Below the pieces are notes generated by a model that searched no databases, had not been told where the DNA came from, and saw nothing but the letters and a program-made list of their open reading frames with translations. A DNA stretch of 19,686 nt from a virus: positions 1 through 19,686 of IMG/VR virus record IMGVR_UViG_3300022486_000016; one strand, written 5' to 3'. Below, piece after piece: positions 1,418 to 19,686 of the stretch (the first letter of the stretch is position 1; each line of letters starts with the position of its first letter). The position numbers and the translations under genes were made by a program.

Positions 1418-1421
1418 TATT

Positions 1422-1493: not shown

Positions 1494-1494
1494 G

Positions 1495-1520
1495 AAAAAG
1501 AGCCATGACGGCTCTTTTTT
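1495..1520. terminator. Bidirectional intrinsic terminator between the convergent left early and late transcription units
   Basis: AAAAAGAGCC-atgac-GGCTCTTTTT: a GC core stem flanked by an A-run and a T-run, so a U-tract follows the hairpin on either strand. It lies between the + strand ORF end (1493) and the - strand endolysin stop (1544). Confidence 0.75.
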
Positions 1521-1543
1521 GCTTTTGTTTAAGCTTTGTGTTA

Positions 1544-2866: not shown

Positions 2867-2870
2867 TCTT

Positions 2871-3257: not shown

Positions 3258-3278
3258 GTTTTCTCACCTCCTTTCTAG

Positions 3279-4358: not shown

Positions 4359-4374
4359 GCATGCTCATACCTCC

Positions 4375-7300: not shown

Positions 7301-7764
7301 GATCCTACGTTAAAACCTTGCGTGTTCGTGTGTCGTGCTCTGAAATTCTTGTCGTCGCTTGGCAAATATGGCAAATACTGAGCAATAGTTCCGCTGACTT
7401 GCGTATTTTTATTAAAGAGCATGGGTTGATAAGTGTTCCATATATCCAACTCGTAAATAATTTTAGTCGTATTCTCGTTAATGTAAGCGATGTCGTAAAC
7501 GAACGCGTAATACTCTTTACCAGCGTTTTTAAAAAACATGTAAGTCGCTGTCTCAAATTGTTCCTGACGTCCGCTTACGTAGATTTCACCCGTGCGTGAA
7601 ATAAACTGAAAATTATCAGATTCGTAAATCTTTTTAAGATGCGGTGAATCGGTATCAAAATATTTTTGCATCTCAGCGCGATTGTCAAAGTGAATGACGT
7701 TCGCGTAATCGCTACGAAATGGCGATTTTGAGTAAAGTTTAATTTTAGTTGTTTCTTTAACCAA
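4375..7764 (-). CDS. Tail knob protein (phi29 gp9-like N- and C-terminal parts) with an internal lysozyme-like + CHAP peptidoglycan hydrolase cassette, 1129 aa
   Basis: The N-terminus (SPFRSDYANV...YYAFVYDI...ELDIWNTYQ) resembles the phi29 gp9 N-terminus. Residues ~325-460 (LLGNAKQESS...GLGLWQWT...RWERAG) resemble the phage tail lysozyme family. Residues ~500-625 are CHAP-like (GNGQCYAL Cys, GAGHTGI His, EQNYG). Gly-rich linkers flank the cassette. TTG start at 7764, with AAAGGA 11 nt upstream. Confidence 0.8.
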   Translation of the reverse strand: MVKETTKIKLYSKSPFRSDYANVIHFDNRAEMQKYFDTDSPHLKKIYESDNFQFISRTGEIYVSGRQEQFETATYMFFKNAGKEYYAFVYDIAYINENTTKIIYELDIWNTYQPMLFNKNTQVSGTIAQYLPYLPSDDKNFRARHTNTQGFNVGSKATEEIYDVGANLVDWLVIVAKPEFKFKGEAGTPASDMSFSGTQKSLKYYFVPVEIAGKMTKQFELDGQTYPPKPIVTILLECFGITVGGKHISPTKDNTADAQHIATNNIVNMYYSRYLGIDYDYDGSVVKIKKADGDIFNVVGVGRQSSAAPSGGSGDLVTVGGPTGSEKEIAERIAKTIKANYPPATVNGIAALLGNAKQESSMDYTIDVAAGLGLWQWTSTRAQGLRNYAHSKGISEHTIEAQVGWLLNEPGESETAKAVLSGNDSAGNLSDVFVTRWERAGIPVADKRRAYAESFVPIVKAVINDASNNSNAGKNADNKTTSAPKPAEVTEKVIAKVKAMANKSVGNGQCYALSSYYCQCFREFGVDAPGLGAGVGNLYKQIGDTYNAYAIGSAYDWKSCGWGVKFNPSEEDFKNAAGCMINYKPNYGPTVTGGAGHTGICISYDGHSLHTVEQNYGNNGYTLDHVVTHVHADALSSICIPPDVLAGGKINPDVVGDASGGDGSGGANSAAYIVKIVEHPKAAPKFIEIDELKPKILKRLKAYIKDTLGERFVHMANQLLLISELIDVELYDYYGNTYAYQLELLNNLQTEDGKYYNKSAIMLLGSVGDQNYNFAGLVAYGHTHNIVDQNNKTFKIKAKADENIISKWDIMQYGIFDTTGKNLTILDDATATYIQGHAAQIKAQQASFNENASLQRQQADMNNRQTSFANDKNIYGANFAVDQSVFKRGKAGVMATVDVATNALDIFSPLKKDETYLGKFMSTASNTAKAGMNGYYNVQQSLMDVTNAKVNRSFAQDENELRSQSTALANLQAKTAIDQQIRAFNATMTDLQNQPDSIQQMGNDISFQTSNYQQGLFIRIRFPYPEQLKTVLTYMHLYGYIYQTESNDVLKYAYNRRAFNYIKLTSADVSGLEAPQSDLAMIKNILASGVRIWEAKYLDYTKPKPFDIYTPNPNRADDQAVLDSYRNFD

Positions 7765-7792
7765 GTTTTGAAAGTTCCTTTCTAGCTAACAT

Positions 7793-7827
7793 ATAAAAAT
7801 AGTGTTAGCTTTTTAACTAACACTATT
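7793..7827 (-). terminator. Candidate partial intrinsic terminator/attenuator inside the late operon
   Basis: An 11-bp perfect stem, AATAGTGTTAG (7798-7808) / CTAACACTATT (7817-7827), with an 8-nt loop. On the - strand RNA it is followed by UUUAUAU. The stem is AU-rich, so the call is marginal. Confidence 0.4.
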
Positions 7828-7869
7828 ATATCATACTTTGTACTATTGCGCTAGTACAAGTATCTTTTT

Positions 7870-8619
7870 TTAGTCGCCGATTTCGGTCTGTCCGACCCAC
7901 GTTCCGCCGTGGCGGATGCGGTGTTTTCCGCGTCCTTGAGCCTTTCTGTCAGCGTTGCTCATTGTGCTCACGTCGCTCCATGTTCCGCCTTTGCGGATTT
8001 TAAACCATCCGTTATGTTTTTGATGACTCTTGAAAGTGCCATTTTTGCGAGTCGCCCAAGGTCGAAACTCTGGCGGTGGAAAGTACGCGATAGCGTCAAA
8101 CCATAATTCGATTTTATTATCACCGCTTGGATCTGCGGCCAAGTCGTCAAAGCGTAGAAGTTTAATTCCTACGTGTTGCGTATGCTCGCGAGCAAATTCA
8201 CTTTTTTTAATAGTGAGGATAGGAACAGAACCGAACACCGTAGCGCCTCCGAGCTGTTGGTTATAGCTATAACCCGTACCTGACTGGTAGTGTAAGTCGA
8301 CCAGTGTTTGACCGTTCGCATTTACTAAGCTATCATGGACAGGGAAAGGAGTGCCACGGCGTAGGCTTGTGATAGTCAAGCCGTAACCGCTCACACCTTT
8401 TACTTTGATACGAATTTCGTCCGTCGTTTCTTCAATGTCATAGTCAAAACTTACTCGCGTGTCAATCGTTTCATTTTCTGGAGATCCGACCGTATAGGCG
8501 TTGTACATGTGAAAAATGGAAGTGTTGCCTTCGTAGCTCACGCCTCTATATGTACCCCCCTGAATGACAACAGGTTTAAGTTGAAAATCTACGCGTCCGC
8601 CGTTTTTAAGTTGTGCCAT
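7870..8619 (-). CDS. Virion structural protein, putative fibre/receptor-binding protein (249 aa)
   Basis: Sits in the structural block. GGAGGTG SD. The C-terminus has repeated basic motifs of the type K/R-I-R-K/H-G-G-T-W (FKIRKGGTW, HRIRHGGTW). The function is inferred from position only. Confidence 0.5.
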   Translation of the reverse strand: MAQLKNGGRVDFQLKPVVIQGGTYRGVSYEGNTSIFHMYNAYTVGSPENETIDTRVSFDYDIEETTDEIRIKVKGVSGYGLTITSLRRGTPFPVHDSLVNANGQTLVDLHYQSGTGYSYNQQLGGATVFGSVPILTIKKSEFAREHTQHVGIKLLRFDDLAADPSGDNKIELWFDAIAYFPPPEFRPWATRKNGTFKSHQKHNGWFKIRKGGTWSDVSTMSNADRKAQGRGKHRIRHGGTWVGQTEIGD

Positions 8620-8622
8620 ACA

Positions 8623-9327
8623 TTAAACACCTCCAGCCAAGTCGTCCTCTGTTGCTCCGTTATTTGTGCGGATAAAGTGCGCACCGTCTGTCGCTCCACC
8701 GAATACGTTAATATTACCTGTCGCAATATTGCGGTCTGGCTTAAGGTTACCATTTTCCCAAGCGCCTGAATTTTTGAGGTTGTCAATAATCTTATTGAGG
8801 TTGTTTTCAATCTCAGTAATACCGAGCTTATCTTTCAAATCTTTCAAAAATTTAGGGTCGTTGAGCAACTCTTTGAGATAGTCTTTAAACCATTTTTGCA
8901 TTTCAGGATCGTGCATAATTTCTTTGAGATAATCCTTGAAAAATTCACGCATGTCTGGATCTCGGAGAATATCTTTAAGATAATTTTTAAACCATTGCTT
9001 CAAGTCGCTATTAAGGACATCTTTGAGCAAGTCTGAGAAGATTTTGCGGAACTCTGTCGAGTGTGCAAAGCGTCGAATAAGTTCAGGAATAAGATATTCT
9101 AACAAATCAATTAGCGCATTTTTAAAGTCTTCAAACTCATTTTCCAACGCTGTAAAGTCGTCCAAGAGTTGCTTAAAGGCTCTTTGAAGCCACGCGATAA
9201 GCTCATAAATAGAGTTCGCGTTGTCAAAGCTCGTTGGGAGTTCTGGAATTAGTCCGAAGCGCTCAATCCAGTATTGACTATAACGACCGCGGTAGTTTTT
9301 GAAAAAGTCTTCGTTTTCGTTAAACAT
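8623..9327 (-). CDS. Putative fibre/appendage protein with four 17-aa helical repeats (234 aa from ATG 9327)
   Basis: The track start TTG 9333 is replaced by ATG 9327, which lies 7 nt after GAGGTG. The N-terminal NSIYELIAWLQRAF motif resembles N-termini of Gram-positive phage fibre/appendage proteins. Tandem repeats follow, then a Gly-rich C-terminus. Confidence 0.55.
   Translation of the reverse strand: MFNENEDFFKNYRGRYSQYWIERFGLIPELPTSFDNANSIYELIAWLQRAFKQLLDDFTALENEFEDFKNALIDLLEYLIPELIRRFAHSTEFRKIFSDLLKDVLNSDLKQWFKNYLKDILRDPDMREFFKDYLKEIMHDPEMQKWFKDYLKELLNDPKFLKDLKDKLGITEIENNLNKIIDNLKNSGAWENGNLKPDRNIATGNINVFGGATDGAHFIRTNNGATEDDLAGGV
8827..9030 (-). repeat. Four imperfect tandem 51-bp (17-aa) repeats inside the CDS
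   Basis: Protein units: LLKDVLNSDLKQWFKNY / LKDILRDPDMREFFKDY / LKEIMHDPEMQKWFKDY / LKELLNDPKFLKDLKDK. On the + strand, TTTGAGATAxTCxTTxAAA recurs about every 51 nt. Confidence 0.8.
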
Positions 9328-9344
9328 AATCAATCACCTCTTTT

Positions 9345-11111
9345 TTAGTAGATTGTTTTAAGAATAGGTGGACATTTTGTGCCAGGCTCAAGCAATTCGC
9401 TCGCTTTAATTGTTTCAACTTCCGCAGTGTCGACGTTGTACGTTTTAATATTAAAGTCGAGAAGCGCTTGAGCGTCCGATTTATTGCCGCTAAACGTAAC
9501 TGATGTACCTGACACGCTTACATGGACTGGAAGCCAATACCCACCCATGTCAATCAACAAACCGCCTGAGACAATTACACCAGCGTCAATGTCATCCTGT
9601 GTAAAGTTTGTACGTCCTTTAGCTTGTGAAAGTTGGAGAAGCGCTTTCGCAGGAGTGAGCGGTGGGAATTCAAGCCAGTCGCGAATTTGGATAAAATTGT
9701 TAGCGAAGTTTTTTTCGGCTGATGCGAAGCGGATGTCTGTCACAATGTTTGTAAGTACACGGTTTTCATCGTCATATTTAAGTGAGACGAACAATCCTGA
9801 TCCGCCGTTTAGTCCGCCGAGCTGGCTAGTTTTTAGACCGTGATCAAAATCGGTGAGTCGAGCGTCGTTGTAACCGGTTTCGTTAATGTTCTCTTGATCC
9901 CACGTTATCGTAACTGTTTCGCCTCCGACGACAAAATCTACAGATTCTAGACCTGTTTGTCGCGTGCGTGCTTGTAAAATTGCACGCTTAGATTCGTCGG
10001 TGACTTTGAGCGGTTCAGCGCTGTTTGTTGTATTAGCGTTCTTTAATTTCTCAGCGAGTGCATCAATCGCTTTTTTAAGCTCACCGTCAGCTGTTTTACT
10101 AGCTTCTCCGAGTTTTGTGACTGCGTCCGTCACGCTTGCAATATCTGAGATTTCTTTCGTTTTAGCGTCTTCGAGCTTTTTAGCTAAAGCGTCAGCTTTT
10201 GTTTTCGCTTCGTTTGCTTTGCCTTGTGCTTCAGCCGCGCGGTCTTGTGCGTCCTGAACAGCGACACCTAAAGCATCAAAGTCAGGAAGCGCTGGTTTTG
10301 CAACTTCAAGACGAATTTCTCCGACTTCTCGCGAGAAGTCGAGAGAGTCGATAGAGTTGTCATTTTGCTTGAGAGTAACAGTAAGAGTGACATTATCTGA
10401 CACCGACAAGCTGACAGCGTTCGAATTATCTAAGTCTGTATAGAGTTCGACGCGTTTGAGTCCTTCGACGCGTCCGTTATGTTTTTTCGCAATGTCGCGA
10501 CTTTCTTCGTTGACGTACAATTTCGCATCTTTTGGCAACTTCGACAAGATTTCTTTAATGTTGTCGATATCGGTTTTTAGCAACTTGTCAGCACCTTCAG
10601 ACGCTTCTTGCAATTTTGCAAGAGCGTCTTTCACGTCCGCAATTTGAGTAATAGCAGTAGTAGCCTTTTGGTCTGCAAGACCTGCTTTTTCTGCTGCTTT
10701 GTCAGCTTTATCTTTCGCTTCTTTTGCGTCATTCAAAGCTTTTGTCAAGTCCGCTTCAATTAATGTACCGTCAATTACCGCTTTTTCTTGCGTTTTGTTA
10801 ATGCTGAGATATTTGCCAGCAGTTTCGAGAGCTAGACCGCGATAGTCGTGCCCAAGGGCGACTGATTTTTTCGGATCATCCGTTCCTTCATCAGCTGTTG
10901 TAACGGTCGTAGTGACAAAAGGAGTCCCTGAGACTTCGTTAACTTTGTCTGGATCAGCTTTTACTTTTAATTTAAAGTCTCCATCACGCTCTGAAAAGTC
11001 AACGCTTGTAAGCGCATCTTTTCCGCTTACGCTAATGTCTTTAATTTTTTGATGTTGTTGGAATTGAATGGTCTTTGAAACTGGTAAAGGTCGTTTAGTT
11101 GATTTAGTCAT
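9345..11111 (-). CDS. Large fibre/appendage protein with a duplicated beta-segment + Ala/Lys/Asp coiled-coil module (588 aa)
   Basis: GAGGAAA SD. There are two similar modules: DFSERDGDFKLKVKA followed by KALNDAKEAKDKADKAAEKAG..., and DFSREVGEIRLEVAK followed by DAQDRAAEAQGKANEAKTKADALAKK.... A distinct C-terminal globular part follows. The receptor-binding role is inferred. Confidence 0.6.
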   Translation of the reverse strand: MTKSTKRPLPVSKTIQFQQHQKIKDISVSGKDALTSVDFSERDGDFKLKVKADPDKVNEVSGTPFVTTTVTTADEGTDDPKKSVALGHDYRGLALETAGKYLSINKTQEKAVIDGTLIEADLTKALNDAKEAKDKADKAAEKAGLADQKATTAITQIADVKDALAKLQEASEGADKLLKTDIDNIKEILSKLPKDAKLYVNEESRDIAKKHNGRVEGLKRVELYTDLDNSNAVSLSVSDNVTLTVTLKQNDNSIDSLDFSREVGEIRLEVAKPALPDFDALGVAVQDAQDRAAEAQGKANEAKTKADALAKKLEDAKTKEISDIASVTDAVTKLGEASKTADGELKKAIDALAEKLKNANTTNSAEPLKVTDESKRAILQARTRQTGLESVDFVVGGETVTITWDQENINETGYNDARLTDFDHGLKTSQLGGLNGGSGLFVSLKYDDENRVLTNIVTDIRFASAEKNFANNFIQIRDWLEFPPLTPAKALLQLSQAKGRTNFTQDDIDAGVIVSGGLLIDMGGYWLPVHVSVSGTSVTFSGNKSDAQALLDFNIKTYNVDTAEVETIKASELLEPGTKCPPILKTIY

Positions 11112-11409
11112 AATTTTTTTCCTCGTTTTCTATAAATGTAAAACTCATGGTTTTTGGATGCAATTCCGCTAGCTGTTTTAAATAAAGGACAGCTTGCAAA
11201 AGCATTTTTTTCGTTTGCTTGCTGTACGCTATTTCAGCGTAACTGTAACCGTCCGCCGTTTTTTTGTCGATGATCTTGTGAGTGAAAGTGTATGTGATAG
11301 CCTGAAAAGCCGTCGTCGCTCGGGCGCAATCTTCACGCCCCGTGGCGCTGTGCCCTTTTACTGTTAGGCGGAGGCTTGTTGCGGTCATTTCCGCATTTAT
11401 TGTAATCAT
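11104..11409 (-). CDS. Prp-like (ribosomal-processing cysteine protease family, former DUF464) small protease candidate, 101 aa
   Basis: MITI..., LRLTVKGHSATGREDCARATTA and C-terminal LLQAVLYLKQL line up by eye with S. aureus Prp (MITV..., DGHADHGEYGHDIVCAGASA, LILQTMLVSLQT). That includes the His/Cys dyad positions and the ~100-aa size. Confidence 0.5.
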   Translation of the reverse strand: MITINAEMTATSLRLTVKGHSATGREDCARATTAFQAITYTFTHKIIDKKTADGYSYAEIAYSKQTKKMLLQAVLYLKQLAELHPKTMSFTFIENEEKNYD

Positions 11410-12095
11410 AGTTTTTCGTGTCCTTCCCCTCCGACCAAAGAAATACGTTTCTCGCCGTCGTGGTTATTCGTCGCGGTGAGTTGGAACTTATCCCAATCTT
11501 TCAGGTAGTGCACCCATCCAGGCTTTTTGAGTCCTCGGTTGTTGTTGTCATACCATACAATACCGATTTCTTCCCAGCTTTCCGCATCGTTCCAAGGTTT
11601 CTCATAAGTTGCTTTAAATTTAAAATTATTAGACGTTAAGACTCCGTTATCCCAATGCGTAAGCTCGTTGATAATAGGTATACGACTAAAATACTCATTA
11701 TCGTCAATGACTCGCCCGAAGCCTTTAAGTTTAGACTTAGATAAAAGCTTATCTTTGCTATAATAAACGCCTAAAACTTTAAAGCGGATGAAACATAAGC
11801 AGTTAAGCTCGTCGCCTGATGTCGTTACGGCTGTAATCGGTTTGTTTACAACTTTCGAGCGTGTTGATGTAATGCCCCAACGTTCAGCGCTTGATGCGTC
11901 TGCGTAGTAGTAAAGCACCGCTCGCGCTTTGACGTAGAGATTTTTTAAGCGTTTACCATAGCGTGGATTAGTTACTTTAAAATAGTACAGCTCGTCAGGC
12001 TCAGGTGTGAAATCCTGAGGTACTTTAATAAGTAGCTGAGCTAGATATTTATCGTAGCTGACTAAGTTTTCGTTAGCTATTGTTAATTCTCGCAT
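11406..12095 (-). CDS. Structural-module protein, unknown function (229 aa)
   Basis: AAAGGA SD. ATGA-type overlap with the downstream gene. Located between the lower collar and the protease. I recognise no motif. Confidence 0.6.
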   Translation of the reverse strand: MRELTIANENLVSYDKYLAQLLIKVPQDFTPEPDELYYFKVTNPRYGKRLKNLYVKARAVLYYYADASSAERWGITSTRSKVVNKPITAVTTSGDELNCLCFIRFKVLGVYYSKDKLLSKSKLKGFGRVIDDNEYFSRIPIINELTHWDNGVLTSNNFKFKATYEKPWNDAESWEEIGIVWYDNNNRGLKKPGWVHYLKDWDKFQLTATNNHDGEKRISLVGGEGHEKL

Positions 12096-12112
12096 AGTTT
12101 GTCCTTTCTAGG

Positions 12113-12772
12113 TCACCACACTTGTAAAAAGAGCGGTTCCAAAATGTTGAAGATTTCAAAAGTGAGGTCTTCCATTTGCGCGAGTTGGTTGTAACGCTGA
12201 GCGAGTTGACCGCCTGCCCATCCGTGCGTATAGCTGTGGTGGTCTTCCTTGCCTTTTGCGTTACCCTCACCGAGCGCATTTGCGTAATCTATTGCGCCGT
12301 ACTTTTGGTCGTGGTCGTTGTCATAAGTTATGCTTAAGTGTTCTTGTGGTGTCGTGTTTGAAATCGATAAAGTGTGACTGTCATTTTTAGAGCTTCCGTC
12401 GTTATACATGCTGGTATCTTGATTCATTTGATCAAGTGACATGTTTTTAAGCGTGTCACGGACTTTAAACAAATTGAGACAGTCCGTGTTTAATTCTTGC
12501 TCTAAAAATACCTGGAAGCGTGCGAACGTCTCGAAACCGATTTCGCGATTATAGAAACGCTGACAAAAGAGTTTTTTAAAGTCGTCATCGACGTACTTAT
12601 TTAAGTGCATGTCTTTAAATAGCTCATTAAATGTCTGGTCAATAATGACATTATAGTGTAAAAAGTCGCCGTTTTCGTCAACTGCCAAACCGTCAAGATT
12701 TCCTGTAATCGGATTACGATACCGAGATTTTAAAAATTGCTCAATTGTTACTGTTGTGTTGTTTTGTGTCAT
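12113..12772 (-). CDS. Lower collar protein (phi29 gp11-like)
   Basis: FYNREIGFETFARF resembles the conserved lower-collar motif as I remember it. It sits directly after the connector gene, as in phi29. GGAGG SD. Confidence 0.65.
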   Translation of the reverse strand: MTQNNTTVTIEQFLKSRYRNPITGNLDGLAVDENGDFLHYNVIIDQTFNELFKDMHLNKYVDDDFKKLFCQRFYNREIGFETFARFQVFLEQELNTDCLNLFKVRDTLKNMSLDQMNQDTSMYNDGSSKNDSHTLSISNTTPQEHLSITYDNDHDQKYGAIDYANALGEGNAKGKEDHHSYTHGWAGGQLAQRYNQLAQMEDLTFEIFNILEPLFLQVW

Positions 12773-13806
12773 GGCTGTAAACCTCCGTCCGCGTTGTCGT
12801 CGAGATTTTCGGTGTTTAAGTCTTTCTCAACATCCGCAAAGTTAAAGCGTTGCACCCATTCAGCAGGCTCTACGTCAATATTTAAGCCGTAAGCTTCATT
12901 AATACGTTTCACCGCGTTTCGACGAGATTTCCAACCTACCTCAATATTAGCTGAGATAATTCCTGCGTTAGAAATTGCTTCAGCAGTAACTAAGCGCTCA
13001 GCTTTGTCCACTGGATTATTATTAATACCTATAAATGTTAAGAGCTGATTGATCACTCGGTTTTTTTCGTCGTGTAACTTATCCAAGAGATACGGAGCCT
13101 CAGTCCTAAAGACTTTAATTCTGTCGTCTAACTGTTGGAAGTCTGCTGTCCCTGCGGCGTTCTTTTGCGTGTTAGCGTAAACGACAGGCTCAAAGCTCTG
13201 GATCTTGTTAAAAATATTTTTTAAACTTAATACAGATTTTTCATCAGCTAAGACAAAGAACGGAGTGACTTGAGCGTTGCGGTTTAATTGAATAGTCATT
13301 TCAATATCTGCGAGCTTTTCGCAATAGAGGTGGATATAGTCCAGATATGGCTCAAATAAGTTATTATTCGGAATAACGATACAAGGTTTGTCCGTCCGTG
13401 TCTCATCATGCATTTTTTGGAGTAAGTCAAAATCCCTTTTACTGTACGCGATTTGCATTTTAGGGAATCGCATCTGCTGAGCCGCGTTAACAGGTAAGTA
13501 CGTCGTCGGATAGTCGTAAATGTTTAACTCTTGCCCGCGTGTGCCTCCTTGGACGACATATCCGAGCTGTTCGTCTTCGAAAAATGCAACGTGTCCATTT
13601 TCCAAAAGCTTACGCTCTATAAAGAGCTCATCAAGGTCATTCGGTAAATTGTACCAAGAGAAGTAGTTTACGACAATGTCATAAAAGTAATTAAAGTAAA
13701 AGTTATACCATGCTGTACGATTACGGTCGACGGTTGTTTTACTGTGTTCAATGCGTCCTAAAGTTTTTGTATATTCCTTGAGACTGTGATAATTTACAGT
13801 ATTCAA
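12769..13806 (-). CDS. Head-tail connector / portal (upper collar, phi29 gp10-like)
   Basis: By-eye matches to phi29 gp10: RNRTAWYNFYFNYF versus RNRWFIHYLNYL; LNRNAQVTPFFV versus VNQNAQKTPVLI; FRTEAPYLLDKLHDEKN versus FKTDAPYVVDKLNAQKN; INEAYGLNIDV versus INELYGLNVKV. TTG start, 7 nt after GAGGA. Confidence 0.85.
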   Translation of the reverse strand: MNTVNYHSLKEYTKTLGRIEHSKTTVDRNRTAWYNFYFNYFYDIVVNYFSWYNLPNDLDELFIERKLLENGHVAFFEDEQLGYVVQGGTRGQELNIYDYPTTYLPVNAAQQMRFPKMQIAYSKRDFDLLQKMHDETRTDKPCIVIPNNNLFEPYLDYIHLYCEKLADIEMTIQLNRNAQVTPFFVLADEKSVLSLKNIFNKIQSFEPVVYANTQKNAAGTADFQQLDDRIKVFRTEAPYLLDKLHDEKNRVINQLLTFIGINNNPVDKAERLVTAEAISNAGIISANIEVGWKSRRNAVKRINEAYGLNIDVEPAEWVQRFNFADVEKDLNTENLDDNADGGLQP

Positions 13807-13830
13807 ATACTTTTCCTCGCTTTCTTTGTT

Positions 13831-13864
13831 TTAATAAAAGCCCAGACCCATTGTGGGCAGGGCT
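13831..13864 (-). terminator. Intrinsic terminator (probably partial) just downstream of the major capsid gene
   Basis: The - strand RNA reads AGCCCUGCCCA-caa-UGGGUCUGGGCU, a GC-rich stem with one small bulge, followed by UUUAUU. It starts 16 nt after the capsid stop codon. Confidence 0.6.
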
Positions 13865-13879
13865 AGTAGAGGAATACTA

Positions 13880-14977
13880 TTAGTCTTCCACGTAGAACAT
13901 GTGGATGTTTTCGAAAAGTGAAAGGCTAGTAAGGTAATGGTGATGGTAGAAGTAGTTATAAGACATAGTCTTTGGATTGCGGATGCTTTCCATGTGTACT
14001 AATTTGTCCTTTAAGATAATCGAGTTCTTAGATACTAAGAAAGCAACTGGACGGCGTCCGTTATTTTGTCCAGCTCCTGTGAACTTGTCAAAGAAGTCGA
14101 CAACAATTTGACGAGCTTGGACTGACGCTTTATCCATGTTGAAAGCGTTAGCAAGCATGAGGTCGATATCAGTTGAGTATTCAGCGTCGATAATCAAATA
14201 TTGATCTTCGAGTGGCGTCGCATTAGGTACACCTACTGGATTATTTGAATGAGCTTTATCACGCGAAGGGATTGTAAACTGTTTAGATTTCGCGATGATG
14301 TCCTTCACCATTTCCTCAATATAGTTATTATGAGTCGTGTCGACTTTAGTACCTGCTACCGTGATTTGGTGAGCTGTACCAGCGTTATCTGTGTAAGTAA
14401 CCTCAGCGAGTGAGTCGTTAAGCACTTGTTTAACTGCTGCATATTCATCGAGCGTGTCTGAGCTAATCAAAGATGTGAACATTTTGTCAATAAATTCATC
14501 AAATGCCATATCTGAGGTAAAGGCTTTTTGAACCCAGGCACGTTCGAAAGTACGATCGTAGCGGTATTCGTTGTTCAACTTGTGATAAAAGACTTCGATA
14601 TCTGTATCAGCGAAAGCGAAAGGATGTCCGTTGTCTTTTGCGTTAAAGTTGTTACGTTCCGCAGGTGCGACGTAAATTTCTTCCAACGTATCACCGAACT
14701 CGAAAATTTCAGATTTAAAAATAGCGAGTGGGTTTTCATAAGTCAAAGCCTTCACGACAACTGATCCAATACGGTTAATCAACTGTTCAAAAAATTCATT
14801 TTCATGAACTTGAAATTGTTGTACAGGGATATTACTGTGGTTGATAGCGCCTTTAAGTACAGGAATGTCAGCCCGATAAGCATTTGAAGCTTTTTCACGG
14901 ATGGCGTTTAAGAGGTCGATGTTGCTTACTGTTTGTCCCGTTTCATGAGACATAAAGCGTGTAATTTTATTGCTCAT
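13880..14977 (-). CDS. Major capsid protein (phi29 gp8-like)
   Basis: By-eye matches to the phi29 gp8 N-terminal half: DLLNAIRE versus DIVNAIRN; RIGSVVVKA versus RIGLVVIRQ; NPLAIFK versus NPLKKFK; TLEEIY versus TIEEIY. AAGGAG SD. Confidence 0.85.
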   Translation of the reverse strand: MSNKITRFMSHETGQTVSNIDLLNAIREKASNAYRADIPVLKGAINHSNIPVQQFQVHENEFFEQLINRIGSVVVKALTYENPLAIFKSEIFEFGDTLEEIYVAPAERNNFNAKDNGHPFAFADTDIEVFYHKLNNEYRYDRTFERAWVQKAFTSDMAFDEFIDKMFTSLISSDTLDEYAAVKQVLNDSLAEVTYTDNAGTAHQITVAGTKVDTTHNNYIEEMVKDIIAKSKQFTIPSRDKAHSNNPVGVPNATPLEDQYLIIDAEYSTDIDLMLANAFNMDKASVQARQIVVDFFDKFTGAGQNNGRRPVAFLVSKNSIILKDKLVHMESIRNPKTMSYNYFYHHHYLTSLSLFENIHMFYVED

Positions 14978-15210
14978 TATTTTTCTCCTTCTTCTACAGG
15001 AATTTGATTATTTTCGTTAACTTCAGTCGTTTCGAGTTCGTCAGCGCGTTCAACGCGTTCAGGATAATTTTGTTCACGGTTTGCGATGTTATCCGCAGGC
15101 GTTTCGAGTGGTTGTTCGACGTCGGTAGGTGCGTTAGTTTCTACGGCACGGTCAGCGTAAATAGCTTTAAGCTCGTCGCGTCCGTACCAGTCAATTTTTG
15201 GAAGATTCAT
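14977..15210 (-). CDS. Small acidic head-morphogenesis protein (77 aa), function unknown
   Basis: AAAGGA SD. Its stop overlaps the capsid start (ATAATG). Very acidic and of low complexity. Positioned between the scaffold candidate and the capsid gene. Confidence 0.6.
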   Translation of the reverse strand: MNLPKIDWYGRDELKAIYADRAVETNAPTDVEQPLETPADNIANREQNYPERVERADELETTEVNENNQIPVEEGEK

Positions 15211-15233
15211 TTTTTTGGTGTCCTTTCTGTTAA

Positions 15234-15536
15234 TTAAAACAAGTCGTTAATTTGTGCAATTTTTGAGACTGCTTCTTTAGCTTCCTCAGCTGCCTCGTTT
15301 TGTTTTCCGATTTGACGGTAAAGCGTGTTATTAGATGCCATAAGACCTTGGTTTTTCTTGTTAAGGTTTGCGACATCTTCGTTCAACGTTGCCACGATTT
15401 CGTCAATTGTACTTACAAAATCTTTAAGCGTAATAAGATCCGCGAGAATTGATTCGATTTCGTCGTCGTTCCCAACACGTTCAGGGAGAGAGTCGAGAAG
15501 CTCAAGAGCGTCTTTAGTTTCAAAAGCTGTATCCAT
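15234..15536 (-). CDS. Scaffolding protein candidate (100 aa, acidic, helical)
   Basis: The track ORF starts at 15584, inside the promoter. I trimmed it to ATG 15536 (MDTAFETKD...), which follows AAAGGAGG. It is the first late gene, and its size and composition resemble phi29 gp7 (98 aa). Confidence 0.7.
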   Translation of the reverse strand: MDTAFETKDALELLDSLPERVGNDDEIESILADLITLKDFVSTIDEIVATLNEDVANLNKKNQGLMASNNTLYRQIGKQNEAAEEAKEAVSKIAQINDLF

Positions 15537-15569
15537 TGTGGAGAAGCCTCCTTTACATTTATTTGTACT

Positions 15570-15601
15570 ATTATAATAACACAAGACAACAAATATGTCA
15601 A
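15570..15601 (-). promoter_or_regulatory. Late-operon promoter (P-late)
   Basis: On the - strand: TTGACA (15601-15596), a 17-nt spacer ending TGt, then TATTAT (15578-15573). This overlaps TATAAT (15575-15570). The SD and scaffold start follow. About 45 nt are paralogous to the promoter at 15966..15997. Confidence 0.75.
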
Positions 15602-15606
15602 GTGGC

Positions 15607-15635
15607 TTGACACTTTTAATGGTTTGTGTTAAGAT
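15607..15635 (+). promoter_or_regulatory. Plus-strand promoter divergent from P-late
   Basis: TTGACA (15607-15612), 17-nt spacer with TGt, TAAGAT (15630-15635). Its -35 and the P-late -35 together form the palindrome TGTCAAG-tgg-CTTGACA (15596-15612). Confidence 0.65.
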
Positions 15636-15641
15636 AATAAT

Positions 15642-15788
15642 ACAAGAAGCACCGATTGTGATTGACGTATAGCGTCTGGACGATTACGCATTGAGTTGCG
15701 CCTGACGCTTTCGCATCTTAATCACATGCTCTGTCAGTCGCTCTCGATTCGTTTCTTCAAACAGTTTCCTTACGGAAGCTGTTTTTTT
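15642..15788 (+). ncRNA. Candidate small RNA A (~147 nt)
   Basis: Bounded by the + promoter and a + terminator. Nested helices: AAGAAGC (15644-50) / GUUUCUU (15751-57); UGUGAUU (15657-63) / AAUCACA (15720-26); AGCGUC (15671-76) / GACGCU (15704-09); CGCA (15687-90) / UGCG (15697-15700). Two G-U pairs exist only in the + sense. No SD-led ORF is present. Confidence 0.55.
15759..15788 (+). terminator. Intrinsic terminator of candidate RNA A
   Basis: ACAGTTTCC-ttac-GGAAGCTGT, 9 bp including one U-G wobble that would be an A-C mismatch on the other strand, followed by T7 (15782-15788). Confidence 0.7.
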
Positions 15789-15794
15789 ATATAT

Positions 15795-15824
15795 AAAAAA
15801 TCCCCTTAGACATCTCGTCTAAGG
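15795..15824 (-). terminator. Intrinsic terminator of candidate RNA B
   Basis: On the - strand: CCUUAGAC-gagau-GUCUAAGG (15824-15804), then GGAUUUUUUAUAU. It converges 3'-to-3' with the RNA A terminator across the spacer T7-ATATAT-A6. Confidence 0.6.
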
Positions 15825-15960
15825 AGTAGTAGTGGTAGAGCTAAATTTGATAGATAAATAAGAAAGAAAGGAGATTTTATGATTTAATAAGAAAGGTGGT
15901 ACTTCATATAGTAAGACTCGTGTAATTTTGTGAGATAGACGCTCTACCTTGCCTATCTCT
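15795..15960 (-). ncRNA. Candidate small RNA B (~165 nt), pRNA-like size
   Basis: Bounded by the late-type promoter at 15966..15997 and the terminator at 15795..15824. It has a 5' hairpin GAGAUAG/CUAUCUC (15959-53 / 15938-32). A 5'-proximal GGUAGAGC (15948-41) pairs with a 3'-proximal GCUCUACC (15841-34). The AU-rich core holds two anti-SD-like tracts (CCACCUUUCUU, UCUCCUUUCUUUCU). There is no credible ORF. Confidence 0.5.
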
Positions 15961-15965
15961 GTACT

Positions 15966-15997
15966 ATTATAATAACACACTAAGGCAAATACGTCAA
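15966..15997 (-). promoter_or_regulatory. Late-type promoter paralog (drives candidate RNA B)
   Basis: On the - strand: TTGACG (15997-15992), 17 nt ending TGt, TATTAT/TATAAT (15974-15966). The string CTTGAC(G/A)TATTTG...TGTGTTATTATAATAGTACA is shared with P-late. Confidence 0.7.
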
Positions 15998-16009
15998 GCG
16001 TCAGGATAC

Positions 16010-16037
16010 AAAAAAAGAGCGTTTTTTATAAACGCCC
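16010..16037 (-). terminator. Intrinsic terminator T2 (second copy of a duplicated terminator module)
   Basis: On the - strand: GGGCGUU-uauaaaa-AACGCUC followed by U7. The G-U pair exists only in the - sense (A-C mismatch in the + sense). It shares the 17-nt identity TACAAAAAAAGAGCGTT with 16089-16105. Confidence 0.65.
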
Positions 16038-16091
16038 TGACGATTCCTGAGTAGTGCCAGTAACTCTAACGCGTACCACTAAAAACAGTAC

Positions 16092-16120
16092 AAAAAAAGA
16101 GCGTTGCACTACTAACGCCC
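16092..16120 (-). terminator. Intrinsic terminator T1 (ends the early operon and candidate RNA C)
   Basis: On the - strand: GGGCGUU-aguagugc-AACGCUC followed by U7. It is the first terminator after the polymerase stop codon. Confidence 0.7.
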
Positions 16121-16163
16121 CGATTTTAGCGATACTCTGCGAGGCAATACCACTTAACCTCAC
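16092..16163 (-). ncRNA. Candidate small RNA C (~70 nt; ~155 nt if it reads through to T2 at 16010)
   Basis: It lies between a perfect-consensus promoter (16170..16198) and T1. There is no ORF (ATG ATG TGA only). Confidence 0.45.
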
Positions 16164-16169
16164 ATCATT

Positions 16170-16198
16170 ATTATAGCAAAACTTTAAAAAATTGTCAA
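16170..16198 (-). promoter_or_regulatory. Consensus promoter overlapping the polymerase stop codon
   Basis: On the - strand: TTGACA (16198-16193, containing the polymerase TGA stop), 17-nt spacer ending TGc, TATAAT (16175-16170). Confidence 0.7.
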
Positions 16199-17811
16199 TA
16201 GTCAAAATCATCAATGGCTTTAATTTCAAAAGTTGTCGTGACAATGGACATACCGCCACGGCGACCAATCATTTTTTTGAGACCGTCGAACTTTTGACCA
16301 ACTTTGAAATTTTCAAAGGTTACTTGTTTCTTTACAGCGTCCGTCATGCCTGCTACCTTGACGTGGAGTGAGCCGTCAGTTTTTTGGATAGCGTAGCATT
16401 TTTGACGGATATATTTAAAGCGAGTTCCTGTAACTTCGAGATCAAATGCACCGAGTTTTTTTGCGTCGACCTCAAATTTTACATTTTTAGTCGTTAAGTG
16501 TACCGCGTCGGTATCACTGTAAACAAAGTTATCACGATGCATTAGAGCGATTGATACAATATAAGTACGAGCAATAGACGCGATTGCGGCAGTCATTGGC
16601 GCATAAATCGCTTTTACAAATGTATCGCGTCCGTTTTCATAGACCACACGTCCTGTCGTTTCATCGATGCGAGGATCTTTGCTTGTTAAACGAGTTTTAG
16701 CGCCAAACTTACCGTAAAGACTCACAAGCATAGCTTTCGCGTGTTGACGGCTAAAAGGAGTCGATGCCTCTTGTTTTTCAGCGTAGTATTTATTTACATA
16801 CATATCAAACAAACCGCGAGCACCTGCAAATGTTACCTGTTTAAAAAATACAAAATCCACAACGTCGTAACTTTTCAAGAAAAGCTGATATTCAGTCCAG
16901 GACATACAAAACGTAGAGCGTCCTTTAGTTTCATAAATCAGATGTCCTTCTTGACACATGCTATTCTCTGTTTTCGCAAACGGGAAAAATCCGTCCTTTA
17001 ATTCAAATTCACATTCAAAGCTAACAAACGAAACTTGAGACTCTAAAGGAGCTTTAGGCTTTGTTGTATTGATTTCGACAGGCTTGCCGTAAGGGAGAAC
17101 AGCGGATTTTTGGATAAAAGCGTACATACTATTAATATCAAAAACGTTGATTTCACCTTTGATGTCTTTGTTTACATATTTAGGAACGATGTAATTCCAA
17201 CCCGATTTATCAACCTCACGACAAAGTTTATCGACATCGTCTGGCAACTGTGGAAAGTAGCTGTCAAAGGCGTAGCCTTGCTGTTTCATAATTTGTTTAA
17301 ACTCATACAAAGCCTGAGAAGCATTAGTAAAACGAACGTATTTACCAGCTACGAAATATTCTTCAACCGCTTTACAAAAGACATCGATATCGCTACCCGA
17401 AAGCTTAAAGGTCTCACGCATGGCGTCAACACCGCCATCAAAAACTTTTTTAAAGTCTTTAATCTCAAAGCGGTAATCATTCACATAGAAACGCAACTCG
17501 TAAAACTCTAAGCCAATCTGTGTATCATACTTAATACCGTTCTCGATAAAATATGCGACAAATGTATTAGTAACTTCAATTAAGCTAGGAACAAAAAGCG
17601 TATGTACTGTGTTTGTATCATTAAGCCCTTGACCTACCCAAGCTTTTAAAAATGCACCAATGCTTTCGAACGTTGTAGCAGAAGTAGTAAGACAACGTTT
17701 AAACGTTATGCTATTAAGTGTAACGCTTTGAACGTCTTCACTGACCATGTCCGCCACTGCCGCATAGTACGTGCGGTCAGTGCGGTTCTTTTTATTATCT
17801 GTGGTATTCAT
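16195..17811 (-). CDS. Protein-primed family-B DNA polymerase (phi29 gp2-like), 538 aa
   Basis: Motif A VFDINSMYAF, motif B AKAMLVSLYGKFGAK, motif C FVYSDTDAVHL, KxY motif RQKCYAIQ. The C-terminal AGMTDAVKKQVTFENFKVG is almost identical to phi29 AGMTDKIKKEVTFENFKVG. See the findings for the missing exonuclease residues. Confidence 0.95.
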   Translation of the reverse strand: MNTTDNKKNRTDRTYYAAVADMVSEDVQSVTLNSITFKRCLTTSATTFESIGAFLKAWVGQGLNDTNTVHTLFVPSLIEVTNTFVAYFIENGIKYDTQIGLEFYELRFYVNDYRFEIKDFKKVFDGGVDAMRETFKLSGSDIDVFCKAVEEYFVAGKYVRFTNASQALYEFKQIMKQQGYAFDSYFPQLPDDVDKLCREVDKSGWNYIVPKYVNKDIKGEINVFDINSMYAFIQKSAVLPYGKPVEINTTKPKAPLESQVSFVSFECEFELKDGFFPFAKTENSMCQEGHLIYETKGRSTFCMSWTEYQLFLKSYDVVDFVFFKQVTFAGARGLFDMYVNKYYAEKQEASTPFSRQHAKAMLVSLYGKFGAKTRLTSKDPRIDETTGRVVYENGRDTFVKAIYAPMTAAIASIARTYIVSIALMHRDNFVYSDTDAVHLTTKNVKFEVDAKKLGAFDLEVTGTRFKYIRQKCYAIQKTDGSLHVKVAGMTDAVKKQVTFENFKVGQKFDGLKKMIGRRGGMSIVTTTFEIKAIDDFDY

Positions 17812-17836
17812 AATAAAGTATCGCTTTCTTTATTTG

Positions 17837-18577
17837 TTATTTTTTACGTTTTGCTGAACGACTGCGAGCGTTCTTTGATGCTCTACTGATATCATCAAAA
17901 GATCCAGAAAGCTCACTCGCTTTAGTGCTGTCGCTCATTTCTATTTTTTTACCGTCGGAATCATAAAACCATTCACGGAGATTTTTAATGTTCCATTCCA
18001 TTCGCGTTGATGGATCTCGGATACTGTCTACAAACTTTGTAGGACTGAGTAAACGAACGCTACGAATCGCGGCACGTGCTTCTTTTAATTGTCCAGGTGT
18101 AGCGCCCGCCTTTTTCATAACTTTATAGCGAGATTCAAGAGCGCTGATATACTGGCTCTTTTTGTCTTTTGCGTAGCTTGTTTTCATCTTACGGACTTGC
18201 GTTTCATTCATGCGACTAAACTTGCTTTTTTGTTCACTTGCCCAATTGCGCCCCATTGCCACGCCGTCCACTCGTCCACCGCCTTCGATAGTTGTTTCCA
18301 TACGTCGAAAGAGTTGGAGTTTTTTCGTCGTCGACTCACGGTAAATACCGCCCGTCTCTGGATTGACCGAGAGATCTTTGGACGAGTAAGCCTTAGTCTT
18401 TAGTTTACTTGCTACGCGTCGTACTGTCTTTGTATCCATTTCTTTACTAGAGAGAGTATTAGTACCAAGGACAGCTTTAATCTCTTCGTCTTTTGCGCCC
18501 ATGCTTGAAAGTTGATTGACACGGCGTGTGATATACCCACGGTCACTGCTGAGGCTTGTTTTTTTCTTAGCTGTCAT
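17837..18577 (-). CDS. Terminal protein candidate (246 aa, basic)
   Basis: Lies immediately upstream of the polymerase, as gene 3 does in phi29. Its size is similar to known terminal proteins (phi29 266 aa). Lys/Arg/Ser-rich. AAAGGA SD. Called from synteny; I recognise no sequence motif. Confidence 0.6.
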   Translation of the reverse strand: MTAKKKTSLSSDRGYITRRVNQLSSMGAKDEEIKAVLGTNTLSSKEMDTKTVRRVASKLKTKAYSSKDLSVNPETGGIYRESTTKKLQLFRRMETTIEGGGRVDGVAMGRNWASEQKSKFSRMNETQVRKMKTSYAKDKKSQYISALESRYKVMKKAGATPGQLKEARAAIRSVRLLSPTKFVDSIRDPSTRMEWNIKNLREWFYDSDGKKIEMSDSTKASELSGSFDDISRASKNARSRSAKRKK

Positions 18578-18866
18578 AATCTAGTCCTTTCATAAACAAA
18601 TCTAATGAGATATACGATGTCAATTTCTTGTACGCGATATCCGTAACTTTAAATCCGTCGTATCCGTTTTCGTCGCAATACTCAGCATAACGACGATTAA
18701 TTTCAGATTGTGTACGCTTGAGCGGTAGTGTCATATTATATTCAGTCGTGGTGATGTCGCCATCTGTGCTTACGTTGTAAACGTAGCCTTTCACAAATGT
18801 AACCGCTCGACGTACACTTACTGTACGCTCTGTATCGTCCATATATTTATAATAACCTTTACGCAT
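18567..18866 (-). CDS. Early protein, unknown function (99 aa); SSB/DNA-binding role is possible from position only
   Basis: First gene after the internal early promoter. AAGGA SD. Overlaps the start of the terminal-protein candidate by 11 nt. No motifs recognised. Confidence 0.6.
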   Translation of the reverse strand: MRKGYYKYMDDTERTVSVRRAVTFVKGYVYNVSTDGDITTTEYNMTLPLKRTQSEINRRYAEYCDENGYDGFKVTDIAYKKLTSYISLDLFMKGLDYDS

Positions 18867-18901
18867 AATGTTTTAATCCTTTTTTGTTTTTCTTTACTAT
18901 A

Positions 18902-18930
18902 AGTATACACCAAATAGGGTGATTTGTCAA
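18902..18930 (-). promoter_or_regulatory. Internal early promoter
   Basis: On the - strand: TTGACA (18930-18925), 17 nt, TATACT (18907-18902). The downstream TATACTTATAGTAAAGAA is identical to that of the proximal ITR promoter. Confidence 0.7.
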
Positions 18931-18969
18931 GTGTAATACCCTACTTTTTTTAAAAATGTTTATATGTTT

Positions 18970-19368
18970 TTATTTTAAATGATTGAAGAAGTACTCAGCG
19001 TCCATGTTGTAATCTTTTGGCTCAATCGCTGATTTTTTACGTTTCGTCTTTGCATACGCGTCAACTATATCCGTATAAGCTACGTCTTTATCTTGAGATA
19101 GTAGTAGCTCAAGGCAAGCATCCACGCGCTTAATCTTCAAATCCTTTGGCCCTGCCTTACGAAACCACGACTCTACTTTTTTAAGTTGCTGTGGTGCTCG
19201 GTACGGATCCATTTTCATATTCCAACAATATGATTTAATCAGTAAGCCCGCTGATTTAGGTAAGGCGCTGTCAGGCATATAATAATCTAAAAACATATTT
19301 TTCTGATTCATCAGGTCACGCACGTAACCCTGATAGGCTTTCAATAATTCTAAGCTTAGTGTTTCCAT
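18970..19368 (-). CDS. Early protein, unknown function (132 aa, basic/helical)
   Basis: The track ORF starts at 19419, inside the ITR and promoter. I trimmed it to ATG 19368 (METLSLELL...), 10 nt after AAAGGAG (19379-19385). That SD straddles the ITR boundary. Confidence 0.65.
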   Translation of the reverse strand: METLSLELLKAYQGYVRDLMNQKNMFLDYYMPDSALPKSAGLLIKSYCWNMKMDPYRAPQQLKKVESWFRKAGPKDLKIKRVDACLELLLSQDKDVAYTDIVDAYAKTKRKKSAIEPKDYNMDAEYFFNHLK

Positions 19369-19402
19369 CTGGAGATTTTCTCCTTTCATATTCTTTACTA
19401 TA

Positions 19403-19431
19403 AGTATAGCACACCTCAATCATTTTGTCAA
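19403..19431 (-). promoter_or_regulatory. Early promoter in ITR-R (proximal), mirror of 256..284
   Basis: Exact ITR copy: TTGACA (19431-19426), 17 nt, TATACT (19408-19403) on the - strand. Confidence 0.75.
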
Positions 19432-19488
19432 ACGTTTTATCTTAGTCATTTCAAATAATTAAAGTAGCTATCCCTTATTTCTAATATA

Positions 19489-19517
19489 AGTATAACACCG
19501 TTTAGCTATATTGTCAA
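19489..19517 (-). promoter_or_regulatory. Early promoter in ITR-R (distal), mirror of 170..198
   Basis: Exact ITR copy: TTGACA (19517-19512), 17 nt, TATACT (19494-19489) on the - strand. Confidence 0.75.
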
Positions 19518-19686
19518 GCGTAAGACCATCGTTTATTTATGCGCCATCATATGCGCGACCATGTAAGCGCCTAAGCATAGACATCAAAATTTTTAATGAG
19601 TCGATTTTAAGACACGGTATAATTTTAAAAAATTGATATACGATTTCAGGACTATCGAGGGGAACCGATTTCCGCTTCTACAGCCC

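Follow-up and report, generated by a model that had tools for sequence, protein, structure and literature searches.

What is encoded in the one large gene-free interval of a small phi29-like phage, and from which strand is it read, are the questions raised by the 19,686-bp DNA of IMG/VR record IMGVR_UViG_3300022486_000016 (positions 1 to 19,686; this whole stretch is called the window below). The interval, called the island, extends over 658 bp (15537-16194) from the stop codon of the DNA polymerase gene to the ATG of the scaffold gene. The first-pass annotation, made from the letters alone, had described it as a 610-bp non-coding stretch at the early/late junction, densely filled with promoters and terminators, and had suspected that the missing prohead RNA (pRNA) of the phage might be found there. 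As judged from the sequence, it can be stated with good confidence that the island is a small-RNA locus, the central element of which (+ strand, 15642 to about 15792) would be a pRNA gene. The locus carries a conserved, strand-specific RNA bounded by a promoter and a terminator, with the topology of a pRNA and with covarying loops, in the genome of a phage that possesses a gp16-type ATPase.

No RNA other than the pRNA is known to be part of a viral DNA-packaging motor; the molecule has become a workhorse of RNA nanotechnology, and its well-characterised examples stem from a few Bacillus phages. A second lineage, backed by covariation and carried by Cp-1-like streptococcal phages, would provide a deeply diverged and independent view of the essential features of this molecule, including more than 60 natural variants and three natural pairs of interlocking loops. 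With respect to context, the window is a complete linear genome of a phi29/Cp-1-type podophage, because perfect inverted terminal repeats of 305 bp (1-305 and 19382-19686) delimit it, and it is a phi29-like phage with a gp10-type connector and a small gp16-type ATPase, the setting in which a pRNA operates.

A structured RNA with the topology of a prohead RNA

The + strand RNA and its parts are located as follows.

15642 to about 15792, + strand: pRNA-like RNA of about 150 nt, consisting of the core (15642-15758) and the terminator hairpin T(+) (15759-15784)
15680-15686, + strand: bulge ACGAUUA on the 5' side, 7 nt, counterpart of the CE loop
15687-15700, + strand: E-like hairpin CGCA-UUGAGU-UGCG with a 4-bp stem and a 6-nt loop (15691-15696)
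15713-15729, + strand: D-like hairpin with the 9-nt loop CUUAAUCAC, in which UAAUC occupies 15719-15723

Folded from 15642 to the end of the U-tract (about 15791), the RNA reaches -50.2 kcal/mol (z = -4.79), and none of 200 shuffled sequences folds as well. The two ends of the molecule pair into a closing A-type helix, which leads into a three-way junction with a bulged hairpin and a second hairpin, followed by the terminator hairpin; the core of about 120 nt thus consists of an A helix that closes a junction with a bulged C/E arm and a D hairpin. The three-way junction is accepted because the RNAs of the window, of Cp-1 and of phi29 have the same topology in their minimum-free-energy (MFE) folds and covariation supports it in two clades. 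Equally, the GAUUA of the bulge (15682-15686) is complementary to the UAAUC of the D-like loop. The suspicion that a pRNA was hidden in the cluster has consequently gained substance for the unit ending at T(+), which unites pRNA architecture, strong covariation and a covarying bulge/loop pairing, and which is the sole RNA of the island for which structure has been demonstrated.

Covariation in two phage clades

For comparison, nine sequences of the window clade and 52 distinct sequences of the Cp-1 clade were assembled, 61 together. Compensatory changes affect 6 of 36 pairs in the nine window-clade sequences. By blastn the + strand RNA of the window clade finds no match in the Cp-1 clade, the two being too diverged, but a covariance model built from the nine window-clade sequences alone (R1) matches Cp-1 at 4684-4804 on the - strand with 27.8 bits (E = 1e-6). 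The relatives L026, L021, L027 and L055 score 36.6, 35.5, 31.4 and 30.0 bits and Cp-7 scores 23.8 bits; over Cp-1, Cp-7, L021, L026, L027, L044, L055 and L077 the E-values range from 4e-8 to 1e-2. All these matches lie on the antisense strand, immediately ahead of the scaffold gene and at a distance of 600-730 nt from the start of the major head protein gene, so that the model of one clade detects the element of the other at the syntenic position. In total, the element was found in Cp-1 and about 60 relatives in the same position and orientation.

An independent derivation of the structure gives the same result: RNAalifold applied to the 52 Cp-1-clade sequences, aligned without the window as a reference, recovers the same architecture with compensatory changes in 23 of 42 pairs. 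When the outer helix and the bulge/loop helix are added to the structure in this Cp-1-clade alignment, 97.8% of 2,909 cells hold standard pairs, a share that falls to 40-54% once partners are shifted by 1-3 columns; double changes occur in 26 of 56 pairs (4-12 after shifting), the covariation score amounts to 0.290 (at most 0.085 after shifting), and none of 500 shuffles reaches the observed values. In a joint MAFFT alignment of both clades the centre is collinear and the outer helix lies one column off register, and pairs were counted per clade. The compensatory substitutions that the first-pass annotation had proposed to look for in alignments of related phages are thus present for the + strand RNA in both clades.

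The complementarity between the bulge of the CE arm and the D loop, a hallmark of pRNAs, is retained while its sequence changes, with at least five contiguous pairs in 61 of 61 sequences. The bulge/loop combinations are distributed as follows.

GGUUA / UAACC: 47 sequences including Cp-1
GGUAA / UUACC: L020 and, separately, L024, L025 and L028
GGUUA / UAACC: L026, in which both sides are changed relative to its own L024 group
GAUUA / UAAUC: L021 and most of the window clade
GAUUA / UGAUC: L013, a G-U variant
GAUUG / UAAUC: L019, L011 and L018, a G-U variant

The strand from which the RNA is read

Most helices can be formed by either strand of a DNA, and wobble pairs distinguish between the two. 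In the Cp-1 clade 457 cells hold G-U and 10 hold A-C, and in the window clade the ratio is 46 to 2; read from the opposite strand, pairing falls from 97.8% to 82.5%. Likewise, for 51 of 52 Cp-1-clade and 7 of 9 window-clade sequences it is the proposed strand that yields the more stable MFE fold. A consensus promoter and a hairpin with U-tract are found on the proposed strand in the window, L021 and Cp-1, the promoter of L021 being a perfect TTGACA-17-TATAAT. The G-U pairs fix the strand of the predicted RNA as antisense to the genes, and the wobble argument, originally raised for three terminators of the island, holds up in this extended form. With strand and ends of the gene defined, annotation and testing become possible in the culturable phage Cp-1.

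Comparison with known packaging RNAs

The 120-nt core of the phi29 pRNA, folded with the same tool, begins with a long A helix and a junction, after which come a lower helix, a 5'-side bulge of 9 nt that contains AACC, a 4-bp helix with a UUGAGU loop and finally a second hairpin with GGUU in its loop. The window RNA presents the same elements in the same order, with a core of about 117 nt compared with about 120 nt and a 3' domain after the core, and in both molecules bulge and loop are complementary (AACC/GGUU in phi29, GAUUA/UAAUC in the window). Both also have a 4-bp apical helix with the identical UUGAGU loop (around 268-263 in the phi29 record L094), whereas Cp-1 has a 5-bp helix with a 4-nt loop and the apical loop of the Cp-1 clade is a different one of 3-4 nt (CAA or UCAA within CUCAAGG); the common loop could be a retained prohead-contact motif or a coincidence. 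In contrast to phi29, with a kissing helix of 4 bp, that of the window RNA comprises 5-6 bp, and the 3' domain of the window RNA is an intrinsic terminator only. The window clade differs from Cp-1, where the homologous element occupies 4684-4804 with a terminator to about 4655 between orf7 and orf8, by its other kissing pair, its phi29-like E loop and non-coding neighbours in the place of orf6 and orf7.

A pRNA-like small RNA was reportedly suggested for Cp-1 by Martin, Lopez and Garcia in 1996 (J Virol 70:3678); this old and neglected suggestion now becomes directly testable. No public record annotates the RNA itself, and those of Cp-1 and SOCP are without an RNA feature at this place. Later work cites 'the pRNA of Cp1' and finds that a model derived from Bacillus phages fails to find the Cp-1 RNA (PMC6266182). 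In the record of Actinomyces phage Av-1 (L114, NC_009643) a misc_RNA labelled 'packaging RNA' is placed at 16295-16402, overlapping ORFs C and B on the other strand. This feature resembles the window RNA as a predicted pRNA of a non-Bacillus phi29-like phage, and it differs by its location at the right end and by not being matched by R2, the combined covariance model of both clades; it is not known to have comparative support. The statement that pRNAs outside the Bacillus phages are poorly defined or unknown needs qualification, as such RNAs are not wholly unknown. New are the comparative proof and the defined strand, with position, orientation and promoter class unlike those of phi29 and a presumed role that is alike.

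How far the lineage extends was addressed with R2, which yields nothing significant in Enterococcus phage CUB-FM, a faecal phi29-like contig, Actinomyces phage Av-1 and Bacillus phage VMY22; the model is clade-specific. CUB-FM (L112, PV646496) has the gene order of Cp-1, and its gap between polymerase and scaffold (4347-4795) contains two hypothetical open reading frames (ORFs) of 56 and 45 amino acids. Despite the negative result with R2, this gap may be a place to look for another unrecognised pRNA.

Proposed function of the + strand RNA

By analogy with phi29, the bulge GAUUA of one molecule would pair with the loop UAAUC of the next in a head-to-tail manner, and molecules paired in this way could close into a ring at the prohead's connector vertex. 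The protruding A helices would then dock the gp16-type ATPase encoded at 3279-4358, the ATPase would pump the terminal-protein-linked DNA into the head, and the RNA would be absent from the mature virion after packaging. The pRNA would probably be co-expressed with the late and morphogenesis genes, because the pRNA gene, unit B of the - strand and the late genes have a promoter pattern in common. Both the location of a pRNA gene and the time of its expression could then depart from those in phi29.

Reading frames, promoters and terminators of the island

The description as non-coding is borne out, with a slightly larger extension than the proposed 610 bp, as the scaffold gene starts at ATG 15536 behind AAGGAGG and not at TTG 15584. 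ORFs of at least 20 amino acids in the island amount to frame noise, and none is conserved according to an ORF scan and the alignment of relatives. A 7-codon AUG ORF in unit B has lost its AUG in L010. A conserved small protein, named in the first-pass annotation as a finding that would speak against the RNA proposal, was looked for; a conserved ORF with start codon and ribosome-binding site (RBS) was not found in the island, where indels of lengths other than multiples of three occur throughout. The remaining intergenic gaps of the genome are indeed small, at most 126 nt. Equally, ARAGORN reports no tRNA or tmRNA genes.

The transcription signals of the island are listed here; promoters were required to match the consensus in at least 10 of 12 positions and to have an extended -10 element.

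16198-16170, - strand: promoter P1, TTGACA-17-(TG)TATAAT, 12/12, immediately following the polymerase stop codon (16195-16197)
15997-15969, - strand: promoter P2, 10/12 with TG, a paralogue of the late promoter
15601-15573, - strand: late promoter P3, 11/12 with TG, driving scaffold, major head protein, connector and the genes beyond
15607-15635, + strand: pRNA promoter, TTGACA-17-(TG)TAAGAT, 10/12, back-to-back with the late promoter
15759-15784, + strand: terminator T(+), called on one strand only, U-tract to 15791
16121-16098, - strand: terminator T1, called on one strand only, U-tract 16097-16091
16038-16016, - strand: terminator T2, called on one strand only
15826-15802, - strand: terminator of unit B, called on one strand only

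All four predicted sigma-A-like promoters, three on the - and one on the + strand, were recovered by the consensus scan, and among the eight sites that pass the criterion in the entire genome, four are located in the island (3% of the genome) and four in the terminal repeats. P1 has its hexamers retained in all relatives, and the pRNA promoter is invariant among them. P2 and P3 belong to a 66-nt repeat with 73% identity, and repeat analysis shows that the pRNA promoter, P2 and P3 have the pattern TTGACR-N11-TGTGT-TAWKAT-AATARTACA in common. Of the five proposed terminators, four are intrinsic terminators called on one strand only, in support of the argument that one-sided U-tracts reveal the strand, and T1 would probably also end the early operon. 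The fifth, weakly flagged on both strands, was rejected; it is probably the palindrome TGTCAAGTGGCTTGACA (15596-15612) formed by two divergent -35 boxes. These boxes constitute a perfect palindrome with a 5-bp gap, and the 40-nt arms that enclose it (15563-15602 and 15606-15645) show 78% complementarity. The pRNA and late promoters of Cp-1 and L021 overlap instead, the -35 element of one standing beside the -10 element of the other, which suggests mutually exclusive binding of RNA polymerase.

All promoters and terminators are retained in eight distinct close relatives, so the proposed small units at the early/late junction are each conserved with their own promoter and terminator. The island is 91-93% identical to close relatives compared with about 85-87% for the remaining genome, and its signals are therefore more than chance.

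The minus-strand units A1, A2 and B

The - strand of the island is divided into the following units, the RNA nature of which is suggested by conservation together with promoter and terminator signals.

16163-16091, - strand: unit A1, predicted RNA of about 73 nt with a 5' hairpin, the single-stranded AGAGUAUCGCUAAAAUC and T1
16163-16139, - strand: 5' hairpin of A1, GUGAGGU...GCCUCGC, 7 bp
16090-16009, - strand: unit A2, about 82 nt, ending at T2; A1 and A2 together about 155 nt
15962-15795, - strand: unit B, predicted RNA of about 168 nt from P2, with a CU-rich core and a terminator stem at 15826-15802
15914-15850, - strand: core of B, nearly invariant, containing CCACCUUUCU and CAUAAAAUCUCCUUUCUUUCUU

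P1 would drive the A1 RNA of about 73 nt, read-through at T1 would add A2, and P2 would drive the B RNA of about 168 nt. A2, a partial duplicate of A1 (repeats D7, D14 and D15), would be reached only by read-through of T1, because it has no convincing promoter of its own. The 8-nt loop of T1, AGUAGUGC (16113-16106), is exactly complementary to GCACUACU in A2 (16057-16050). It is possible that this pairing represents an alternative or long-range structure of the read-through RNA. An adjacent GCUC/GAGU pairing extends the complementarity, and all of these positions are invariant in nine genomes. The hairpin of A1 shows one compensatory change (L013, GUAAGG/CCUUAC) and U-A/U-G alternation. Unit B contains a 5' hairpin GAGAUAG/CUAUCUC and a long-range helix GGUAGAGC/GCUCUACC, with compensatory changes in each of hairpin and terminator, and its CAUAAAAUCUCCUUUCUUUCUU is the exact complement of a Shine-Dalgarno (SD) sequence AAAGGAG followed by a 5-nt spacer and AUG.

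Sequence constraint was expressed as the mean pairwise difference among nine genomes.

A1: 0.032, with 66 of 73 columns invariant
B core: 0.037, with 59 of 65 columns invariant
pRNA core: 0.111
A2: 0.124
Third codon positions of flanking genes: 0.26-0.36
Second codon positions of flanking genes: 0.002-0.038

The low values for A1 and the B core among the nine genomes show that strong purifying selection acts on their sequences. When IMG/VR, metagenomes and GTDB were scanned for exact patterns of A1 and B, only contigs of the same phage clade were retrieved, and 185,579 species-representative genomes contain no copies. By eye, the A1 loop AAGUGGUA and UACCACCUU in B show a bulged complementarity of 8 bp, which was judged no better than chance.

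Firmicutes possess small RNAs (sRNAs) that act as anti-SD molecules, for example the streptococcal csRNAs and the staphylococcal C-rich sRNAs. B resembles them as a short, terminator-ended unit with a single-stranded CU-rich stretch complementary to SD and AUG, and differs from them in that it is phage-encoded, has a late-type promoter and matches no Rfam family; A1 and B are without known counterpart. The reading preferred here, in which A1 and B act in trans as sRNAs and B blocks ribosome-binding sites, is tentative and less likely than not; if it is right, regulatory sRNAs would be described in this phage group for the first time. In Cp-1, SOCP, Cp-7 and L021 the space between polymerase and pRNA holds orf6 and orf7 (about 150 and 170 amino acids), and in the window clade about 420 bp of non-coding DNA. 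A scenario in which this clade of oral Streptococcus-type phages has replaced the orf6/orf7 proteins by phage sRNAs, with B shutting off host or early-phage translation, is more speculative still and rather unlikely as a whole; if true, a three-RNA control and packaging hub would exist at the early/late switch that is undescribed for any phi29-like phage. The annotated Cp-1 orf6 (L090, Z47794; 3703-4149) shares an overlap with the 3' end of the polymerase gene, and an annotated terminator (3756-3775) lies inside it; at least the 5' part of this ORF looks doubtful as coding sequence.

Weighing the alternatives

Several observations weigh against a pRNA in the island. The known family, RF00044, comprises the pRNAs of the Bacillus phages phi29, PZA, B103, M2/Nf, SF5 and GA-1, to which no sequence or covariance-model similarity is detectable. 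Rfam Phage_pRNA remains unmatched in the whole window at the gathering threshold and in 15500-16250 up to E = 10, where Rfam gives chance-level matches only (MIR4208, SprD, Pistol and others). The search with the Rfam pRNA model proposed in the first-pass annotation thus came out negative with respect to family membership. R2 in turn reaches 11.9 bits at the phi29 left end (E = 0.09) out of register, and the argument for homology to the Bacillus pRNAs is one of architecture and context only, because R2 misses the phi29 pRNA in register. On the other hand, pRNAs are known to have only about 12% of their sequence in common while their secondary structure is conserved (PMC5066667). The phi29 pRNA gene lies at the left end (147-320) behind the early promoter A1 of that phage (coordinates from PMC11476376), a typical but non-defining trait, whereas the gene of the window is found mid-genome (15642-15792 of 19686), antisense, divergent from the late promoter and behind a promoter of late type. 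Furthermore, sequence cannot tell an intermolecular bulge/loop pairing from an intramolecular pseudoknot; for phi29 the classic proof of intermolecular pairing came from mixing two mutants complementary only in trans. The Cp-7 record (LK392619) finally marks -35 and -10 elements on the + strand at 4860-4891 and a terminator at 5005-5033 that flank the element. By analogy the + strand RNA would nevertheless be built and work like a pRNA, outside the Rfam family as defined.

Could the structured RNA be real and yet be read from the other strand (- in the window, + in Cp-1), as the Cp-7 record implies? The Cp-1 RefSeq entry (NC_001825) equally marks late start points on the + strand, PL1 (4740) and PL2 (4835), in the pRNA-like locus, and reverse complementation leaves 82.5% of cells paired; yet the wobble excess, the MFE comparison and the promoter and U-tract terminator on the proposed strand in three phages make this reading very improbable. 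A structured + strand RNA with another job, as an antisense or regulatory RNA or a transcription insulator with an intramolecular pseudoknot, is unlikely to a lesser degree. It fits with the adjoining divergent late promoter and the promoter overlap in Cp-1 and L021, with the undetectable sequence homology to Bacillus pRNAs, and with the literature: in the pRNA reviews searched, of 2014, 2016 and 2025, neither Streptococcus nor Cp-1 appears, that of 2016 regards phi29 and its relatives as the only phages known to need a packaging RNA (PMC5066667), and a review of 2024 calls the pRNA unique to phi29 and related Bacillus phages (PMC11476376). Against it stand the element-by-element match to the phi29 architecture including the covarying complementarity, and the presence of a gp16-type ATPase, the C-terminal domain of which cannot bind the connector, a role taken by the pRNA (PMC11476376). 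Equally, the + strand RNA is the only candidate pRNA in the genome, which offers no Rfam matches and no other large non-coding gap.

For the - strand units the balance is different. A1, A2 and B could instead act in cis, as DNA or as elements of transcription control, namely tandem terminators that insulate the early operon from the late genes, duplicated promoters that serve as sinks for RNA polymerase or a regulator, or binding sites of a phage DNA-binding protein. This main alternative has a substantial chance of being right, though somewhat below even; in its favour, the early operon is directly followed by the tandem terminators T1 and T2, and P2 duplicates the late promoter. Several results count against regulatory RNAs and are compatible with such elements: the fold z-scores of A and B (-1.9 and -1.35) are no better than shuffled, both are too invariant for a test of structure, and no targets of A1 or B were found in the phage. 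RNAduplex against all 21 phage translation-initiation regions gave best energies within the shuffled range (B core with the holin gene -23.4, null minimum -23.6), and a search of the window for near-exact complements of the two B motifs returned only the motifs themselves. However, the most invariant parts are the transcribed interiors (A1 loop and linker, B core) and not promoter spacers or terminator flanks, the hairpins of A1 and B show U-A/U-G alternation and compensatory changes consistent with a - strand RNA, and a perfect-consensus promoter running straight into a terminator yields a discrete product by construction. Least probable of all is a decayed orf6/orf7 region in which AT-rich DNA mimics promoters and terminators by chance. 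Cp-1, SOCP, Cp-7 and L021 do carry the two ORFs in the same slot, but tblastn of orf6 and orf7 of Cp-1 and L021 against the window detects no similarity and no remnant. The conservation of the island above that of the flanking coding DNA contradicts decay, and promoter matches of 10-12 out of 12 with extended -10 are concentrated in the island and the terminal repeats.

The phage genome and its relatives

The pRNA candidate and its neighbouring units are embedded in the following genes.

16195-17811, - strand: B-family DNA polymerase gene, stop codon 16195-16197
15234-15536, - strand: scaffold gene, start ATG 15536, RBS AAGGAGG at 15551-15545
3279-4358, - strand: gp16-type packaging ATPase gene, matching the phi29 gp16 structures 7jqq and 5hd9
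also on the - strand: a terminal-protein-sized gene
also on the - strand: genes for major head protein, upper collar connector, lower collar, tail proteins, holin and endolysin
336-1417 at the left end, + strand: three small ORFs

PHROG assignments include the upper collar connector (E = 5e-89), the lower collar and a terminase (phrog_2150), and of the three left-end + strand ORFs, the two that were scanned have no PHROG matches. The phage belongs to the small Streptococcus-type, Cp-1-like (phi29-type) group. Its closest isolates are the pneumococcal phages Cp-1, Cp-7 and SOCP with major head proteins 67-70% identical (Cp-1: 67%), and about ten metagenomic contigs from IMG/VR and the ENA/NCBI metagenome collections are about 85-87% identical genome-wide. 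At the nucleotide level, neither the island nor the window as a whole matched any of 50,697 phage records. The genome is a mosaic, with a scaffold protein 47%, a DNA polymerase 31% and a terminal protein 24% identical to those of Cp-1. DNA polymerase (31%) and terminal protein (24%) are as distant from Cp-1 as from phi29 (32%), and the regions to be contrasted are 16195-18577 and 12769-15536, the morphogenesis side being Cp-1-like.

Outside the island, the four promoter matches of the terminal repeats, at 170-198 and 256-284 with mirror images at 19517-19489 and 19431-19403, fire inward from both ends. A bidirectional terminator (1494-1520), called on both strands, separates the convergent left-end + strand ORFs and the endolysin gene.

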